Part shown: positions 19,422 through 26,832 of the stretch, one piece after another
How positions within the stretch are numbered: the stretch's first letter is position 1
Layout of the letters: every line of letters begins with the position of its first letter
DNA from: an uncultured Chloroflexia bacterium
GTDB lineage: Bacteria; Chloroflexota; Limnocylindria; Limnocylindrales; CSP1-4
Direction of reading: 5' to 3'
Length of the DNA stretch: 64,000 nt
NCBI GenBank assembly: GCA_963734535.1
Contig: CAVTHS010000014.1
Span: 256,001-320,000, forward strand
The notes under the pieces: generated by a model
What the model was told of the DNA's origin: nothing
Database searches by the model: none
The model's input: only the letters and a program-made list of their open reading frames with translations
Position numbers and translations under genes: made by a program

Positions 19422-21470
19422 TCAAGCCTCGCGCAGTGGCCGGCTGGCGAGCCCGGCAAGCCCGGCCGCCAGCGTGATCACGCCGAAGACCACGAGCACC
19501 GGCCCCACCCCAGCGGCGTCGCCCAGGAGGCCGCTGGCCGCCATCGCGAACGTCATGGCCCCGAAGACCGCGGAGAACCGGAAGCCGATCACCCGCCCGA
19601 TCATGTCGCCGGGTGTCCGTTCCTGGAAGAGCGTCTGGGTCGGGATGATGAAGACCATGTTCGAGATGCCCATCGCGAACGCCAGGCCAAGCGCGAGCGG
19701 CAGGTTGTTGGTCAGGCCCAGGCCGACCACCGCGAGGCCGTACACGGCGTAGCCGCCGATCACCATCCGGCCCTTCGCGATCCGCGAACCCAGCAGGCCG
19801 ATCACGAACCCGCCGAGCAGGTTGCCGACGCCGATCGCCGTCTCGATGAAGGCGTAGGCGGCGGTCCAGTCGAGCGACCCGAGTCGCAGGACCACCTTCG
19901 CGTAGAGCGGCGTGAGCGCGATCGTCGCGCCGACCGTCAGCTGCCCCGCGACCGCCTGCAGCGTGTTGGCGAAGAGGACGGGCTCGCGACGAAGGAATCG
20001 CCAGCCGGCGGACAGGTCGGCGCGGATCCCGGCCAGCCCGGGGACGGGGTCGGCCGACCCAGCCGAGCGGACCACCGGCGGGATCACCACCACCATCACC
20101 AGGAGGGCCGACGCGACATACGACACGGAGTCGAGCCAGAACGCCAGCGGCAGCGCGCTCCCGAGGAACGCCACGAACAGCCCCGCGAAGGGATAGCCGA
20201 TGACGTCGGCCAGGGTCTCGTTGAGCCATGTCGCGGCGTTCGCCGACACGAGCTCATCCTCGTGCACGACCCTCGGCAGGACGGCCGTCCGGGCCGGCCG
20301 GAAGAAGATCGAGACGGTCGTCAGGAGGAAGACCAGCGGGTAGGCCAGCACGACGCTCACGCCGACGCCCGCGGGAATGAGCACGACGATCCCCGCGCGA
20401 ATGAGGTCGCTCGCGATCAGGACGTGCTTCTGGTTCCAGCGGTCGACCAGGACGCCCGCGAGCGGTCCGAAGAGGAGGTTCGGCAGCGTCGCCGCAACGA
20501 ACGTCAGGGCGCCCGCGATCGCCGAGTTCGTGGTCCCGTAGACAAGCGCCGCCAGCGCCACCTGGTGGATCCGGTCGCCGAAGAGGCTGATCACCTGCCC
20601 CGTCTGCAGCGCGGAGAAGGATCCGTTGACTGCGAGCCGAACGTACGGGTGATGGCGCGCCCGGATCGCGACCGTCCGGAGGACGCCGGGCAGGAGCGGT
20701 GCCGTGACGCCGCCCGACGACATCGGCGCCGGTGTTGCCAGCCCCGCGCCCGAGCCGCCCAGGATCATCGGCCGCTCCAGCGCAGCGATGCCAACCAGGC
20801 TCGCCGCGAGGCCGGTCCCTGCGCGCACGCCGCCCGTCTGCTCGGAGCCGGGCGATCCGGCCAGGACCACCGGCTGGCTCGGGTCGGCGCTTCGGAGCGT
20901 GCGGCCGTCCGACCCGACCTCGTCCGCGTGACGCACCATGCCCGCGAACAGGAAGAACCCGAGTCCGACGTCGAGGATCACGTCGCCGATCGAGAGAACA
21001 TTGCGCAGGAACGGCAGCGGAACCGGGATCACGTCGCCCAGCGGGCCCGCCGACCACATGAAGGCGGCGTCCAGGCTCGCCGGCAGGATCACGTGGATGG
21101 GCGAGAGGACGTCCGCCCGGCCGAACCCGGCCGCGACGAGGCTCGGTTCCCAGATTGGCATGAAGCCGCCGTTCACCAGGATCGCCGTGGCGTTGAGCCC
21201 GATCCCGACGAGCGCCAGGCTCATGCCCGGCCTCGCCCGGTTCGCCCACAGCCCGATGGCAAGGACGCCATAGGCGGCGGCAAGAAGCGGAACCCGCAGC
21301 GTCTCGGCGATGGCGACGTCCCGGCCCAGCGCCGCCTCGGTACCCAGGCGAAGGGCGAGCGCGCCGAAGATCACGAGCGGCCAGCGGAGGCGGATCGAGA
21401 TGAGGTTGTCGATGCGGCCGCCGACCGCGAACCCCGCGACCAGCCCGATGATCAGCCCCGCGATCAGCAC
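19422..21470 (-). CDS. DUF5317 domain fused to an MFS transporter
   Basis: N-terminal about 180 aa: GGRIDNL..IRLRW, GLNATAILVNGGFMPI, PLGDVIP and VLSIGDV (DUF5317). C-terminal MFS: GQVISLFGDRIH, AGVLVDRWNQK..LIASDLIR and TLFQERTP..MIGRV. Confidence 0.85.
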   Translation of the reverse strand: MLIAGLIIGLVAGFAVGGRIDNLISIRLRWPLVIFGALALRLGTEAALGRDVAIAETLRVPLLAAAYGVLAIGLWANRARPGMSLALVGIGLNATAILVNGGFMPIWEPSLVAAGFGRADVLSPIHVILPASLDAAFMWSAGPLGDVIPVPLPFLRNVLSIGDVILDVGLGFFLFAGMVRHADEVGSDGRTLRSADPSQPVVLAGSPGSEQTGGVRAGTGLAASLVGIAALERPMILGGSGAGLATPAPMSSGGVTAPLLPGVLRTVAIRARHHPYVRLAVNGSFSALQTGQVISLFGDRIHQVALAALVYGTTNSAIAGALTFVAATLPNLLFGPLAGVLVDRWNQKHVLIASDLIRAGIVVLIPAGVGVSVVLAYPLVFLLTTVSIFFRPARTAVLPRVVHEDELVSANAATWLNETLADVIGYPFAGLFVAFLGSALPLAFWLDSVSYVASALLVMVVVIPPVVRSAGSADPVPGLAGIRADLSAGWRFLRREPVLFANTLQAVAGQLTVGATIALTPLYAKVVLRLGSLDWTAAYAFIETAIGVGNLLGGFVIGLLGSRIAKGRMVIGGYAVYGLAVVGLGLTNNLPLALGLAFAMGISNMVFIIPTQTLFQERTPGDMIGRVIGFRFSAVFGAMTFAMAASGLLGDAAGVGPVLVVFGVITLAAGLAGLASRPLREA

Positions 21471-22885
21471 GGCTGGGCGGGGGTCAGGAAGCGTCCGTGG
21501 GTGGGCCGCCCGGCGCAGCCGGCGGAATCATCCGCGCCGCGGCCTGGGCGAGGAGCGGGACAGGTCGCGACTCGGTCGGGCGCCCGGGCGTCTGCCACGT
21601 CCTTGGCCCACGACGTGCGCACGAACGCGTCGACCATCACCGGATCGAACTGGACGCCCGCGTACTTGCGCAGCTCCGCGAGTGCCTGCTCGCGCGACAA
21701 CGGCCGCATCCGATACGGGCGCGCCGACGTCATCGCCTCGAACGCGTCGGCCACGTGGAGCACGCGCGCCAGCTTGGGGATCTCGTCGCCCATGAGCCGA
21801 TCCGGGTACCCGGAGCCGTTGTACCACTCGTGGTGGTGCCGGATGATCGGCAGCTCCGGGGCCAGCTTCCCGACGTGGGCAATGATGTTGGCCCCGATCA
21901 CCGGGTGCCGGTTCATGAGCGCCCGCTCGTCCCGCGTCAGCTTGTCCTGCTTGAGCAGCACGCTGTCCGGCACCCCGATCTTGCCGATGTCGTGCAGCAG
22001 CCCGCCCCACTCGAGGGCCTGGATCTCGTCGTCCTTCAACCGCATCACGTGCCCCATGTCCACCGAGATCAGCTGCACGCGCTCGCTGTGACCGGACGTG
22101 AAGGTATCCCTCGCATCGACTGCCTGCGCGAGTGCCCCGATGGTCTGCGTGAACATCTCCTGCACTTCGACGACTTGACGAAGTGCGACTCGCATGATGT
22201 AGATGGGCAGGACGCGAAGAAGAGAGTTGCCCACCATCCGACCTCGAGAGGCGATAGATCTGCGTCATCAGCCAAGCCAGGGGAGCGAGTGCAACCCTGT
22301 CGCGAAGAACGTCGGTCGATCCCCGAGCAAGACCGTTCTGGTCGATTGCTGCGTTCGAAGGGCGACCGTTATTGATGTGAAGCTCACGTTGAGCGCAAAG
22401 AACACAGACGCAGCCCGGCGAGCGTCGATACGAAGTCGCCGGCCGGAGCGGTTGATCCCGACGCCCGAGTTCCGTCAGGACGATCTGACGCCCGAACGTC
22501 CCGCTGCGATCGCAGGAACAACAAGTCCCGCGTGGTTGGCAAGGGTTCCGTACCACGGGACCCGACCCGAGTCTCCCGATACTCCTTGTCCCGATGGCGC
22601 GACGATCGCAGCCTGCGGCCTGGTCCTCCCAGACTCATCGCGGCGACGATTGGCGCGATCGACGTGTTGATGAGCGTAGCCCCGCGCCATCGGACTGGCA
22701 GAGCCGAGGCTAGGAGGGTCAGCCCCGTCCAGAAGACGATCCCGGCGAGGACGTCGATTGTCTCGGAGCCAAACAGGTCCAGCCGAATCTGCTATCTGAC
22801 AGGAATCACGACGACTCGTGACGACTAGCACAAGGTGCGCCGACCGTCACGAGCTCGCAATGTAGATGCTGAGGCTCTTAGGCAT
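21464..22885 (-). CDS. Membrane-sensor HD-GYP cyclic-dinucleotide phosphodiesterase; the N-terminal multi-TM sensor is frameshifted
   Basis: Intact GHSERV, LLHDIGKIG, HHHEWYNGSGYP and ADAFEAMTSARPYR. Upstream TM fragments are MPKSLSIYIA (ATG 22885, GAAGGGA RBS), FWTGLTLLASALPVR, LINTSIAPIVAAMSLGGP and VPWYGTLANHA. Confidence 0.85.
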
Positions 22886-22963
22886 CCGATCCCTTCAGGC
22901 GACCGTCGGCTGTCCTTGGACTGTAGACGTACCCGGACGAGCCGGAAGGTGAGACAGAAGTAC

Positions 22964-23053
22964 CTAGAACCCCTTCAGTGATGCTCCCCCAGCAATAACG
23001 GCCGCGCCGATAGGCCGACGGTACCGCGAGGAGGGCGCAGTCCGAGTCTTCAT
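22964..23053 (-). CDS. 29-aa micro-ORF, putative signalling-peptide precursor MKTRTAPSSRYRRPIGAAVIAGGASLKGF
   Basis: ATG at 23053 to TAG at 22964, read by hand. Basic N-terminus and C-terminal AAVIAGGASLKGF. The middle is probably distorted by compensating indels, since an alternate frame gives LLAVPSA. Confidence 0.7.
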   Translation of the reverse strand: MKTRTAPSSRYRRPIGAAVIAGGASLKGF

Positions 23054-23083
23054 CACTGGAGACCTAGCTCCCGTCCCCTGCCG

Positions 23084-23116
23084 TCAGAAGCCCTTGGAAC
23101 CGAACTCGGGACCCAT
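23084..23116 (-). CDS. 10-aa micro-ORF MGPEFGSKGF
   Basis: GGAGGG Shine-Dalgarno 6 nt before ATG 23116, TGA at 23084. Shares the C-terminal KGF-stop with the adjacent micro-ORF. Confidence 0.55.
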   Translation of the reverse strand: MGPEFGSKGF

Positions 23117-23267
23117 CGTGTGCCCTCCAATGGGTTTCCGTGCCCCCGCGAAATCACGAAAACCGACCTAACAGATTGGTCGGTCGGTTGCACTAGTCGC
23201 TCCACCTCCCCCCTAAGTGCCCATTTCGGGAGGAGGTATCAGCGCGTCCGCTTGTTCACTTTGCTTC

Positions 23268-23327
23268 CTAGTACCGCGGTACTAGTCGGCGAACCGGACT
23301 TTAGGCTGCTGCGCGAGCAACGGTCAA
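23268..23327 (-). promoter_or_regulatory. Sigma70-like promoter with a downstream perfect 18-bp palindrome (candidate operator) for the peptide operon
   Basis: Minus strand TTGACC-N18-TAAAGT; CTAGTACCGCGGTACTAG at 23268-23285. Confidence 0.5.
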
Positions 23328-23344: not shown

Positions 23345-26300
23345 CTAGCCCAAGAGATCCTCAAGGTGAGGCGGATCAAGGCCGAGGTCCCGCTGACCCA
23401 GTGAGTAGTGTCCGTACTGTTCGGCCGCGGCAGCGTAGGCGCCGACCAAGGTATAGAGCCGTATCACGGTCTTCTCGACCTCGTCGAGTTGCGGGTCAAT
23501 CTCAATGGCCCGCTGAGCGAGGCGCATCGCACGATCGATCTGACCAGTGTCTGCATCGTGCGTCGACCGCGCGCTCCACGATCTCGAGGTATCTCGCGTG
23601 CATCGATGCTCTCGGATCGGGGCCGCCCATTCTTCGTAGGTGAAGTCGAGGGCGAATCGTCCCGAGTAGATCTGTGACACGCGATCGGCCTGGGCCGGGG
23701 TCGCGAGAGCGCCGATCGACGCTGCAATACGTCGATACTCATGGCTTCTGCTCGTAACTAGGTCGGAGTCTAGCCACAGCACATCGGGGTCGTGATGCAG
23801 ATACCCGGGGCTCAAGTCCTCCGACGTAGTCGGGCTCGAATACGCGACGGAGGAAGTAGACGGTCTGGTGCAGTGAGTTGGCGGCCTGCTCCGGATCCTG
23901 ATCCGGCCACAGCGCGTCAAGTACCTGGTCCCGCGTTGCCGACATCTTTGGCTGAGCTAACAGGAAGCAAAGGAGCGCAAGAGCCTTCCGGCGGATCGTC
24001 GTCCCCGGTATCTCCATCGAACCAACCCAGATAACCAATCCGGCCGAGATCGTCGACATAGACCAAGTCGGCAACTCGACGGGCGAGCGACTTACCGAAG
24101 TCTGGATGACGGAGTTGTCCCTTGGACTCCTTCGAAGCCAGCCGGAGTAGGCGAACGTCCTCTTTGGTCCCGATTACCTCCAGGAGGCGGGCGGCTTGCC
24201 ATCGCTCTCGGCCTCCTGGAGCTGCAACGAGAATGCGAATTGGCGATTCGCCAGCGACGCGGGCGTGACTCAGCCTCTGCAGCGGACGACGTCGATCGCA
24301 GCGTCGGACAGGTCGGCGATCCTCCGGAGCACTGCCTCTGCCCGAACGCTCAAGAGCGCGCGATCGCGGAGCCCGATGGCGCTGACGATCGCCGACGCTT
24401 CGTCCGGCGTGGCAGATAGTCCACGCAACAGCGATGCGTCGATAAGGCGACCCAGCGCGCTGCTTGCCGCCGGGCTAACGTTTCGAGCGCTAGTCGAGAC
24501 GCGGGATCAACCGTTCCGAATGCGAGAACTCGCGAATTCAGTGCGCCAGCAGACGCTGGACGTGGAAGGCGGGGTATCCCGTCAGGACTCCGCAGGCATT
24601 CGGCGGATATGTGAGCCCGCGTCGCCTCGCCCACCTCACCAGGTCTTCCAGCCGCGAGAGCTGTCTCCGGTGAGAAGCTGGAAGCACTCCAGGGAGGCAT
24701 CTGGAGCACCCAGAAGGTCGGCCTCCGCAGCAGTCTGAGAGGCGCGCGTCCGGATCGTCGTAGGCTCCAATGATCTCGGCGCCCTCGACGAGGCTCTCAA
24801 ATCGCGTCCCGGCTCTCGCTGCCTCGAGCGAGTGTCACGTCCAGCTTCGCCTCCGCCTCGACCCAATCGCCGTCGTGGGCAAGGGCCCAAGCCTACAGTG
24901 TCTGCACCGACGATATTTCCGTTCCCGCGGAGGAGCGGCTAAGCGCATCCACGGCGCCAGCCGCCCGCGTCGCGGGTTGCGTGCACGTCGCCTCGAGCAC
25001 GCAACATCCACGCGGCATTCAAGAGCGAGATGCCTTGGTAGTGCCAGTAGCCCCGCCGCTCGAATCGGGTTGCGAGGTCCGCGATAGGCATGGATCGACA
25101 CCGCCGAGGTCTCCGTCGACGGGAATGATTCGAGCCAAGTCATGGCATCCGCGAGGGTGGCGATCGCTCGCCGGTTCTTCCGACAGAGATCGCGCCGCCC
25201 AGCGAACGGCGCGTTCGTAGGTCGCCTACCCCATAAGACGCGTTCATCATTGACCCCATCGCGATAGCAACGGTCATGCGACCGGTCGCTTCCTCCGACG
25301 ACACGATCGATGGCACCTGCGGCAGCCGCGGCTGCTCCGGCCGGATCACCGGCACGGAGTCGTCCTGATGCCACTATCACGTCGTGCCAGGCGCCGAGGG
25401 TGGCGGGGTCGAGATGGGAGGCGAGCTGCTCGGCGTCCTTGTAGGCGCCGGAGCCGAGGATGACGGGGACTGCCGCCGAGAGGACTCGGACGGCGTCGTC
25501 GGCCAGGTCGGCGGCGGCGAAGTGGTACGCCGCGACCGACCACGAGGCAGGCTCCGCGGCGCGCGCGATGCGGGCGTGGATCTGGCGGACCGCGATCGCC
25601 CCGACGGCGTCGTGCAGCCGGCCCTCCAGGAACGTCCGGACGAGCGGGTGGAAGAGGCGTCCGGCCTGCCCGGTTCGGCCGCGTCGCGACAGGAGACCCG
25701 CACCCTCGGCGGCGTCGAGGAAGCCGCGAGCGGCCTCCGGGGTGACCTCGGCGGCCGCGGACGCGAGCTCCGGCGTGACGACGGCCAGCAGGCAGCTCCG
25801 CTCGACGAAATCCTGGGCGGCACGTGGCATGCGCCCGACGACCTCCTCGGCAAGGTAGTCGTGCAGGTCGCCCTGCCGACCGGACAGGCCGCGGATGACG
25901 GTCCGAACCTCGTCGCGCGGCCGCCCGCGGACCACGGACTCGACGAGCCGCAGCGTGGCCGCCCATCCCTCGGTGGTGCGGGCGAGGTCGTCGAGGAGGT
26001 CGCGCTCGAGCGGGTCGTGGTAGGTGTCCCGGAAGAGGCGCTCCGTCTCGTCGCGGTCGAATCGCAGGTCGTCGGTGCCGATCTCGGCCGCTTCGCCGAT
26101 TGCGCGGAGGCGGGCGAGGGGGAGCGTTGGCCGCGTCCGCGAGGCGATGACGACCGCCAGCCGGTCGGGACCGCGGACCACGAGCTCACGGACGATCTCG
26201 CGGATCTCCGGGACGTCGTCCACCTGCTGGTAGTCGTCGAGGACCAGCGCCGTGCCGACCACCGCCCAGGCACGAAGCTCCGCCAGGAGTGTCCTGACGA

Positions 26301-26832
26301 TCGCGCTCCGGTTGTCGAGGGTCGCCGCGAGCTCGCGCAGGAGGCCTGCCGTGTTCGGGGCGAACTCCGGATCGATCTCGCGACCGGCGGCGACGATGTG
26401 ATGGATGAACACGGCCCAGTCGCGGTCGTGCTCGTCCAGGCGATACCAGAGCGTGCGCACGCGGGTACGCCGGCTCCAGTCCGCGAGGAGCGTGGTCTTC
26501 CCATAGCCCGGCTCGGCGATGACGAGGGCGAGCCGGGACCGCGTCTTCGCGTGCAGCCAGTCGATCAGCCGGTCGCGCCGGAGCGTCTCCTCCGGGAGCA
26601 TGGGCGGCTGGATCTTGCCGATCTGGACCGGATAGCCGAAGACTTCCACGTCGTCCTGCTGGGCAGCGCTCGGAGTCCGATGCGAGACGGGACCCGGCCC
26701 AACCGGGACGAGGCGTGTCGGGACCGTCTGCGGATCACGGGCGAGCGGGTGTGCCGACCACCGACCGCCCACCTGGGCGTGGGCGGGGGTCAGGGAAGCC
26801 GGGCCGGGAGCCGGGGAAGCCATCGCGGCCAT
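23345..26832 (-). CDS. Large MalT-like STAND ATPase / TPR / wHTH-BTAD (SARP-type) transcriptional regulator, 3' half frameshifted
   Basis: KIQPP..LRRDRL, Walker A AEPGYGKTT, LVLDDYQ, LRFDRDE, TEGWAA, DYLAEEV and FHPLVR. The C-terminus reads RKALALLCFLL..ATRDQVLDALWPD..ANSLHQTVYFLRR, with BTAD motifs YSGRFALDFTYEEWA and AAAAEQYGHY. Confidence 0.8.

Follow-up and report, generated by a model that had tools for sequence, protein, structure and literature searches.

Bacterial sensors and transporters can be modulated by small single-pass membrane proteins, as in the pairs MgrB-PhoQ and SafA-PhoQ and with KdpF and AcrZ. Monoderm bacteria also use peptide pheromone cassettes, among them AgrD/AgrC, Phr/Rap, SHP/Rgg and ComS/ComR, and attenuators employ leader or arrest peptides such as TnaC, ErmCL, SecM and MifM. 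The riboswitches of class II for cyclic di-guanosine monophosphate (c-di-GMP) were reportedly described by Lee et al. in 2010. The present analysis concerns two micro-open reading frames (micro-ORFs), uORF1 and uORF2, of 10 and 29 codons, in a 64-kb stretch of DNA (the window; positions 256,001 to 320,000 of contig CAVTHS010000014.1) from a bacterium of the Chloroflexota, class Limnocylindria. They lie between a c-di-GMP-II riboswitch and the gene for a MASE9-HD-GYP c-di-GMP phosphodiesterase, hereafter the main gene. Both micro-ORFs were confirmed as conserved small genes, far beyond chance. We propose, with a probability of about 0.5, that the two peptides are a riboswitch-gated pair acting in trans as partners of the neighbouring MASE9-HD-GYP sensor. 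All features of the window described below are on its minus strand.

The locus shares characteristics with each of these systems. As in other c-di-GMP-II riboswitch operons, the aptamer scores above the gathering threshold, a terminator overlaps its 3′ end, and a gene for c-di-GMP turnover is part of the unit; the first products, however, are micro-ORFs, and the lineage is Limnocylindria. Like the small membrane modulators, uORF2 has fewer than 50 residues, one helix and a basic N-terminus, adjoins a polytopic sensor and has weak in-silico support for a contact with it. This likeness is one of architecture. Unlike those systems, there is a second peptide here without a transmembrane (TM) segment but with the same tail, and the riboswitch senses the very messenger that the partner enzyme degrades. 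With the pheromone cassettes the locus has in common tiny genes beside a polytopic sensor and a transporter, the joint divergence of peptide and sensor, and the aromatic peptides of a distant family. It differs in having no processing enzyme and no RRNPP or histidine-kinase receptor, and in its output, which would be c-di-GMP hydrolysis rather than transcription. The attenuator leader peptides are matched in the short ORF, strong Shine-Dalgarno (SD) sequence, location in a 5′ leader, and conservation at the C-terminal residues and stop, but not in other respects: no alternative pairing is tied to an ORF, no regulatory codon run was noticed on inspection, a terminator follows a lone peptide gene in the distant family, and the second ORF has a TM-like helix.

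In the text of a preprint by Galperin and Chou (bioRxiv 10.1101/2021.11.05.467447), MASE9 is described as a membrane sensor domain that is widespread among c-di-GMP enzymes, with an unknown signal and a ligand that is probably bound within the membrane. The main gene, with a MASE9-type domain and HD_5/HD-GYP, resembles the MASE9-HD-GYP phosphodiesterases treated there. That text leaves micropeptides unmentioned and uses the word 'riboswitch' 0 times; its supplementary figures may show gene neighbourhoods. Literature searches returned no description of such peptides behind a c-di-GMP-II riboswitch. In several Chloroflexota families one or two conserved micropeptide genes regularly precede a MASE9 gene, and in Limnocylindria they are riboswitch-gated. 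The peptides are concrete, synthesizable candidate ligands or partners for MASE9. If the proposal is true, the locus would represent a riboswitch with a micropeptide pair as first cargo, and the peptides would add a layer to second-messenger homeostasis.

Conservation of the micro-ORF pair

With its SD sequence, uORF1 occupies 23084..23128. The SD (GGAGGG, 23128-23123) is separated by six bases from the ATG at 23116, and the stop codon TGA is at 23086-23084. The ORF itself (23116-23084) reads ATG GGT CCC GAG TTC GGT TCC AAG GGC TTC TGA and encodes the 10-aa product MGPEFGSKGF. After a gap of exactly 30 nt, uORF2 (22964..23053) encodes 29 aa, MKTRTAPSSRYRRPIGAAVIAGGASLKGF, with the C-terminus AGGASLKGF; it begins with ATG AAG and ends with CTG AAG GGG TTC TAG, and an in-frame GTG is found at 23056, just ahead of the ATG. 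A preliminary description of this DNA had given both ORFs, their positions, the SD, the 30-nt spacing and the differing tail codons, and all were recovered exactly. It contained neither the c-di-GMP-II riboswitch directly upstream nor the MASE9-HD-GYP gene downstream. The window holds 13 adjacent small-ORF pairs (ATG ORFs of 8-40 codons, same strand, gap ≤60 nt), and the last three residues are common to both members only in the uORF1/uORF2 pair. When the window was shuffled 20 times, 0 of 693 such pairs shared them.

DNA like 23270-22950 was present in 209 of the 401 genomes of the family, across 35 of its 49 genera, and in 24 of the 36 genomes of the genus. The family tally takes in the unpublished genomes G140 and G195, which contributed no sequence to the analysis. 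Loci were gathered from two genome sets (81 + 80), giving 125 distinct loci, and ORFs were called in all of them by one rule that used SD and position only. By this rule uORF1 was called in 125 and uORF2 in 114. Among these 114 pairs, uORF1 was 10 codons long in 93 and ended in K-[GPASTVQ]-[WFY] in 104, while uORF2 was 29 codons long in 92 and ended in [KRNQT]-[GPAV]-[FLW] in 105. Its consensus was MK.R..R, about 14 hydrophobic residues (the core, residues 8-21) and LAGGASL[KR]GF. The SD of uORF1 and its 7-nt spacer were near-invariant, and the gap between the ORFs was short, mostly 5-33 nt. Loci that departed from the norm were mostly affected by single-base frameshifts in long-read assemblies, in which the large gene was broken as well; short-read assemblies also carried both ORFs.

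The pattern of substitution indicated selection on the peptides, as the preliminary description had supposed from the tail codons. At uORF2 codons 21-26, entropy was near zero at positions 1 and 2 and about 1.8 bits at position 3, and the ratio of non-synonymous to synonymous polymorphism (pN/pS) was 0.52 in frame versus 1.08 and 1.66 out of frame. For uORF1 the corresponding values were 0.83 versus 1.48 and 0.90, in an ORF too short for them to decide the matter. Its individual codons were more telling: K8 was unchanged in 51 of 51, P3 varied at the third base only, the small residue at −2 alternated among G, P, A and S, and the last residue switched between W and F via two-base (multi-base) changes. 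The uORF1 stop moved among TGA, TAG and TAA at a fixed place. At least six tandem expansions of uORF1 were found (L067, L079, L116, L123, L126 and L175), all in frame, with 2-4 units each ending in KGW or KGF; examples are ..TSVTKGF three times and ..TVLAVTKGW four times. Each of the two ORFs stopped at TAG in 86 of 114 loci, compared with 28% of the long ORFs of these loci, in which TGA made up 69%. Taking TAG and TAA together, the stops read by release factor 1 (RF1) were used by 101/114 uORF1 and 96/114 uORF2, against about 31% of long ORFs.

In public annotation, an exact look-up found four of eight uORF2 versions of relatives called as 29-aa hypothetical proteins; the window's own version had no match by exact look-up. 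A search for further uORF2 copies in the window's own genome returned, besides this locus (E 2.4e-4), only a weak match, E 0.108, within a 178-aa frame.

The KGF tail said to be shared by the two products was true of the window, and overall the tails form one motif class, changing in both ORFs together across larger distances; exact KGF=KGF identity was limited to 18 of 114 pairs. The family norm was uORF1 KGW paired with uORF2 KGF or RGF. A sister family of the same class contributed 18 further loci, 10 of them above the riboswitch gathering score and 2 just below. There uORF1 had 8-9 aa and a KGW end (KSW in one locus), and uORF2 ended in GGAS[FL]KGW; tails were KGW/KGW in 7 of 11 loci, and W was last in both ORFs in 9 of 11. 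In a distant Chloroflexota family the pairs were MLTLNWQF / ..GGTNLSF, MLSLNWSL / ..GGANWSL and MTFSLSFSW / ..GGAVVSW, with tails WQF/LSF, NWSL/NWSL and FSW/VSW, respectively. The second of these pairs shared 15 identical bases. The idea that AAGGG in the tails serves as SD of the next ORF was rejected, the next start being too distant; Arg at −3 of uORF2 was encoded by CGN in 22 of 45, besides AGG/AGA.

Compared with all close relatives, the window's uORF2 lacks one base after codon 6 and carries an extra base near codon 13. This compensated −1/+1 frameshift converts LLRLLAVASTIG into TAPSSRYRRPIG and leaves codons ~5-13 out of frame; the hydrophobic frame in all close relatives at that place reads MKTRLLRLLAVASTIGAAVLAGGASLKGF. 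Short-read contigs of relatives, from three runs, contained matching indels at 23040, 23035 and 23016. No public read run contained the same strain across 22160-23100: in the best run, with 0.41 of sampled words, near-identical contigs end at 22159 and restart at 23100, and uORF2 is covered in public reads only by relatives' contigs, 90-95% alike. The −1/+1 pair is likely an assembly error, as opposed to a real mutation, and the earlier suspicion that the Arg-rich middle was an indel effect was well placed. In relatives' long-read assemblies, main-gene frameshifts occurred at other, scattered places, a pattern suggestive of indels introduced during assembly and not of decay. Genes of this kind are missed or corrupted by gene callers and long-read assemblies, as with the compensated frameshift of the window's copy.

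The longer ORF had been likened to a signal peptide, and it does look like a signal anchor or TM segment. A basic n-region is followed by a hydrophobic h-region, and G-A-S would be usable as a c-region, with 4 residues then left. The further suggestion of a lipobox with Gly replacing Cys fell away. A lipobox is defined by Cys at +1 (L-[AS]-[GA]-C); uORF2 reads L/I-A-G-G-A-S there, with A-G-G-A-S near-invariant, and 47 of 47 distinct 29-codon versions had no Cys at that place.

Probable riboswitch control of the leader

The c-di-GMP-II riboswitch aptamer (RF01786) was located at 23173..23258 and scored 61.4 bits, above the gathering score of 53.5, with E 3.2e-11. It was the sole Rfam match within the window. 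The match spanned the full model (positions 1-84 of 84), with the outermost pairs of stem P1 non-canonical in the model alignment. From the aptamer end to uORF1 the distance was 57 nt. A terminator-like hairpin follows at 23151..23189 (−14.4 kcal/mol), formed by AACCGACC, a 13-nt loop and GGUCGGUU, then UUCGUGAUUU, and was kept in every aligned locus. A simple terminator scan left it unflagged because its loop exceeds 8 nt. Its 5′ arm, AACCGACC, is a conserved 3′ segment of the aptamer, so that the expression platform competes with the aptamer. Since the arm is part of the aptamer, bound c-di-GMP should block termination, and the element would be an ON switch.

RNAalifold analysis of 42 diverse sequences recovered a 5′ hairpin, the aptamer, the terminator and one further hairpin, and found no conserved pairing over either ORF (alignment columns 225-420). 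The further hairpin, GGUUUUCGUG / CACGGAAACC, has 10 bp (23133..23164; −16.0 kcal/mol). It overlaps the 3′ arm and U-tract of the terminator and stops just 5′ of the uORF1 SD, and may shape the read-through mRNA.

Two elements at the downstream end of the leader bear on how the stop codons and the main gene are to be read. The uORF2 stop codon was found by alignment of loci to lie inside a conserved (C)TAG(G)TAC, here TAGGTAC at 22960..22966. GTAC occurred within the interval from stop to +8 in 51/69 loci for uORF2 versus 1/69 for uORF1. In the spacer beyond it, a conserved −10-like TACAGT (22920..22925) is a candidate internal promoter of the phosphodiesterase gene; TAnA[GC]T was present in the spacer of 60 of 69 loci, where it ended 24-41 nt, and in most cases 29-33 nt, 5′ of the start codon of the main gene.

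Proposed action on the MASE9 sensor and its rivals

The main gene (21464..22885) starts at an ATG at 22885, which is 78 nt 3′ of uORF2, and contains several frameshifts in the assembly. Its counterpart in relatives is a single ORF of 444-514 aa with an N-terminal polytopic membrane domain and HD_5/HD-GYP. The HD_5 part of the window's copy is intact (22237-21464, HD_5 131.6 bits), and the sensor part was matched in its own genome as two pieces with internal stops. The Pfam MASE9 model (PF20972) matched 65 of 74 sensor domains of relatives at E ≤1, with a best value of 1.2e-10. A PF20972 search of the window's own genome gave no match because the main gene is frameshifted. Across loci, uORF2 was always immediately 5′ of the MASE9 gene. 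Directly 3′ of the phosphodiesterase gene is a gene for a DUF5317 + MFS_3 transporter (19422..21470), and an MFS_3 transporter always adjoins the phosphodiesterase gene or is fused with it. A literature search found DUF5317 in 0 papers. In the distant family one locus (L237, G540:C2) encodes an 850-aa protein that fuses MASE9 (PF20972 27.7 versus a cut-off of 24.3), HD-GYP and MFS_3, which hints that the separate phosphodiesterase and transporter of the window work together. The fusion also lends some weight to the preliminary description's suggestion that the short peptide may be an intracellular ligand, an antagonist or a substrate of the MFS transporter.

According to our proposal, the c-di-GMP-II riboswitch would gate a transcription unit in which the two micro-ORFs are translated as the first cistrons, such that bound c-di-GMP would prevent termination and turn the peptides on. 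uORF2 would be a 29-residue single-pass membrane peptide with a helix of about 20 residues, the invariant AGGAS and a basic-Gly-aromatic tail, its basic N-terminus presumably cytoplasmic by the positive-inside rule. uORF1 would be a soluble peptide of 8-10 residues with a tail of the same kind (K, small, W/F). The former may serve as an in-membrane partner or ligand of MASE9 and the latter as a free copy of the tail. At high c-di-GMP, the peptides would then tune the enzyme that degrades it.

Peptides and sensor showed a statistical link. In 44 intact loci the residues that vary in uORF1 and uORF2 tracked the MASE9 domain, with partial r of 0.48 and 0.40, values reached in 0 of 2000 permutations; partial r with the HD-GYP domain was −0.14 and 0.08. 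The sensor half also diverged faster, with a mean identity of 0.53 versus 0.80 in the catalytic half. The tracking is compatible with co-evolution or with linkage of a cassette-like kind. When uORF2 and the MASE9 domain were submitted to complex prediction, a contact was weakly supported: the partner pLDDT (predicted local distance difference test) was 61 or higher, and 76% or more of the contacts agreed between runs. Of 80 solved complexes 58 attained the mark applied, as did 2 of 110 mismatched pairs. The score was 0.50, the best of three controls scoring 0.00, and it falls in a band in which predictions are wrong in the majority of cases unless the pairing was already probable: scores ≤0.60 that met the mark came from 7 of those 80 complexes and from both mismatches.

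This last limit is one of several points that weigh against the proposal. The evidence for translation and for the peptides themselves is indirect. The tracking of MASE9 could arise without co-evolution, from physical linkage together with recombination that takes place between the sensor half and the catalytic half. Tail matches within loci exceeded those in shuffled pairings (45 versus 31.1 for 39 distinct tail combinations; 0 of 10000 shuffles; strongest at position −2, 21 versus 13.0) in a test that counts related lineages as independent, and a tree-aware test showed nothing, with 5-6 independent pairs and no power (for 6 pairs, the other trait moved the same way in 1.6, the opposite way in 1.0 and without difference in 3.4). 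The preliminary description had looked to orthologous loci for conservation and co-variation of the C-termini; both ORFs proved conserved, and the data suggest co-variation at deep divergence, which at fine scale was not demonstrated. As for RNA, one metatranscriptome contig, from a relative, covers 22691-23128, across the spacer into the main gene, and it is unable to prove a single transcript. With the middle of uORF2 out of frame and the phosphodiesterase gene broken, the window's copy could also be decaying. Finally, a leader peptide that acts in cis would also be expected to lie behind a riboswitch, to have a strong SD without variation and a constant length of 10 codons, and to be most conserved at its last residues, and the surplus of TAG stops would suit it too.

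Such a cis-acting leader is the alternative that fares best, although we consider it doubtful. Translation of uORF1, and then of uORF2 by coupling or reinitiation, would control the phosphodiesterase operon, either by shielding the leader from Rho and RNases or by a ribosome pause at K-G-W/F-stop, and the released peptides would be functionless. The location of the ORFs between the riboswitch terminator and the main gene would be as expected, and so would the near-invariant SD and 7-nt spacer, the 10 codons of uORF1 in 93/114 with conservation clustered by the stop, the enrichment of RF1-read stops and the short gap between the ORFs. The tolerance of internal repeats, provided that the last unit meets the stop, agrees with it as well. 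For uORF2 the stop-codon argument is weakened because the TAG lies inside the conserved TAG(G)TAC, an overlap by which its preference for TAG is explicable. Purifying selection along the TM-like helix of uORF2 would be needless for a spacer ORF, neither ORF has conserved alternative RNA pairing, and the tail motif shifts in both ORFs together between lineages. The −10-like element that separates uORF2 from the main gene in 60 of 69 loci also speaks against control in cis.

The arrangement in other families points the same way. In the distant family, where no riboswitch was detected at the peptide genes, four genomes had the short peptide alone. The lone short-peptide gene is followed by an intrinsic terminator in L230 (by scan) and L231 (read by eye), and in L241 a hairpin and T-run follow the short-peptide gene. 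A −10 of the TACAAT/TAGAAT kind stands right before the main gene in most distant-family loci; L230 was the one locus scanned, and there a terminator and a promoter-like site separate the peptide gene from the main gene. In other Chloroflexota families a single TM peptide, MKW...AAGA.x[KR]W., is located ahead of the homologous sensor gene (L224, L225, L226, L227, L234 and L236); L226 carries two identical peptide copies in tandem and a c-di-GMP-II aptamer of 52.7 bits at the locus.

A bolder form of action in trans, which we regard as unlikely, is that the peptides are the ligands of the orphan MASE9, uORF2 tethered to the membrane and presenting its basic-Gly-aromatic C-terminus, and uORF1 free and moved across the membrane by the MFS transporter, neighbouring or, in some lineages, fused. 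The riboswitch would then gate a peptide signal, possibly from cell to cell, with feedback on c-di-GMP hydrolysis, and peptide and sensor would diversify jointly in the manner of agr-like specificity cassettes. A pheromone-like role would have the short peptide, and perhaps also the cleaved tail of uORF2, leave through the MFS transporter and be sensed by MASE9 from outside or within the membrane, as a c-di-GMP-gated signal between cells comparable to peptide quorum sensing in Gram-positive bacteria. The constant presence of MFS_3 beside or within the phosphodiesterase gene is compatible with export, and the distant-family peptides are aromatic octa- and nonapeptides (e.g. MLSWNYSW and MLTWNWTW), with a hairpin after the gene in L230, L231 and L241. 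The in-frame multi-copy expansions resemble multi-unit peptide precursors, the peptides diverge along with the sensor half and, like it, at a faster pace than the catalytic half, and the small-residue A-G-G-A-S after the uORF2 helix could be a processing site. uORF1 is without a signal peptide, however, and no dedicated protease or modification gene was seen in the locus, and on our analysis this role is distinctly improbable.

That the ORFs are chance occurrences, conserved non-coding RNA or an assembly artefact would accord with the many indels of the assembly here, which affect the uORF2 middle and the main gene, and with the richness of high-GC DNA in spurious ORFs, but can be set aside almost entirely, as start, length, stop position and tail class are kept in the family, sister family and distant family, uORF2 varies at third positions and repeat expansions occur only in frame, no RNA structure is conserved over the ORFs, short-read assemblies carry both, and four of eight uORF2 sequences are annotated as 29-aa hypothetical proteins.

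A quick ORF scan of paralogous sensor genes in the same genomes (L213-L219), whose main starts were uncertain, found no twin peptides, the exception being one short ORF ahead of L214.

Minor elements and neighbouring genes

Upstream of the aptamer, a promoter-like site P1 (23298..23327) consists of TTGACC, 18 nt and TAAAGT, with 1 such site found versus 0.2 expected. Its −10 was kept in the alignments of relatives as TATAGT/TAAAGT/TAGAGT. Between this site and the aptamer is a 5′ stem-loop, ACUAGUAC-CGCG-GUACUAG (23268..23286; −11.9 kcal/mol), which shows compensatory changes and G-U pairs among relatives; AGTAC-N3-6-GTACT was found in 40 of 69 loci. The AGUAC/GUACU arms are echoed by the (C)TAG(G)TAC at the uORF2 stop, and this shared word could be a protein-binding or processing site.

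In one RNA run (X15), depth was 220-330 over the aptamer versus 12-13 downstream. This fits premature termination but was not used as evidence, because contig depths summed over organisms cannot rank expression.

The window's own genome contains two more c-di-GMP-II-like aptamers, both below the gathering score (L022, C3:335031-335116, 41.2 bits; L023, C3:330900-330984, 38.1 bits). Ordinary proteins with signal-peptide-like starts, and no micro-ORFs, are encoded directly 3′ of them.

Further upstream, regulator-like frames occupy 23345..26832, with BTAD/TPR at 23920-23345 and AAA_22/AAA_16 at 26832-24835, below Pfam cut-offs. They are possibly one gene of STAND/SARP type split by frameshifts. 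GC content was 0.58-0.66 across 21464-22885 and 23345-26832, and higher, 0.70-0.77, in the flanks.

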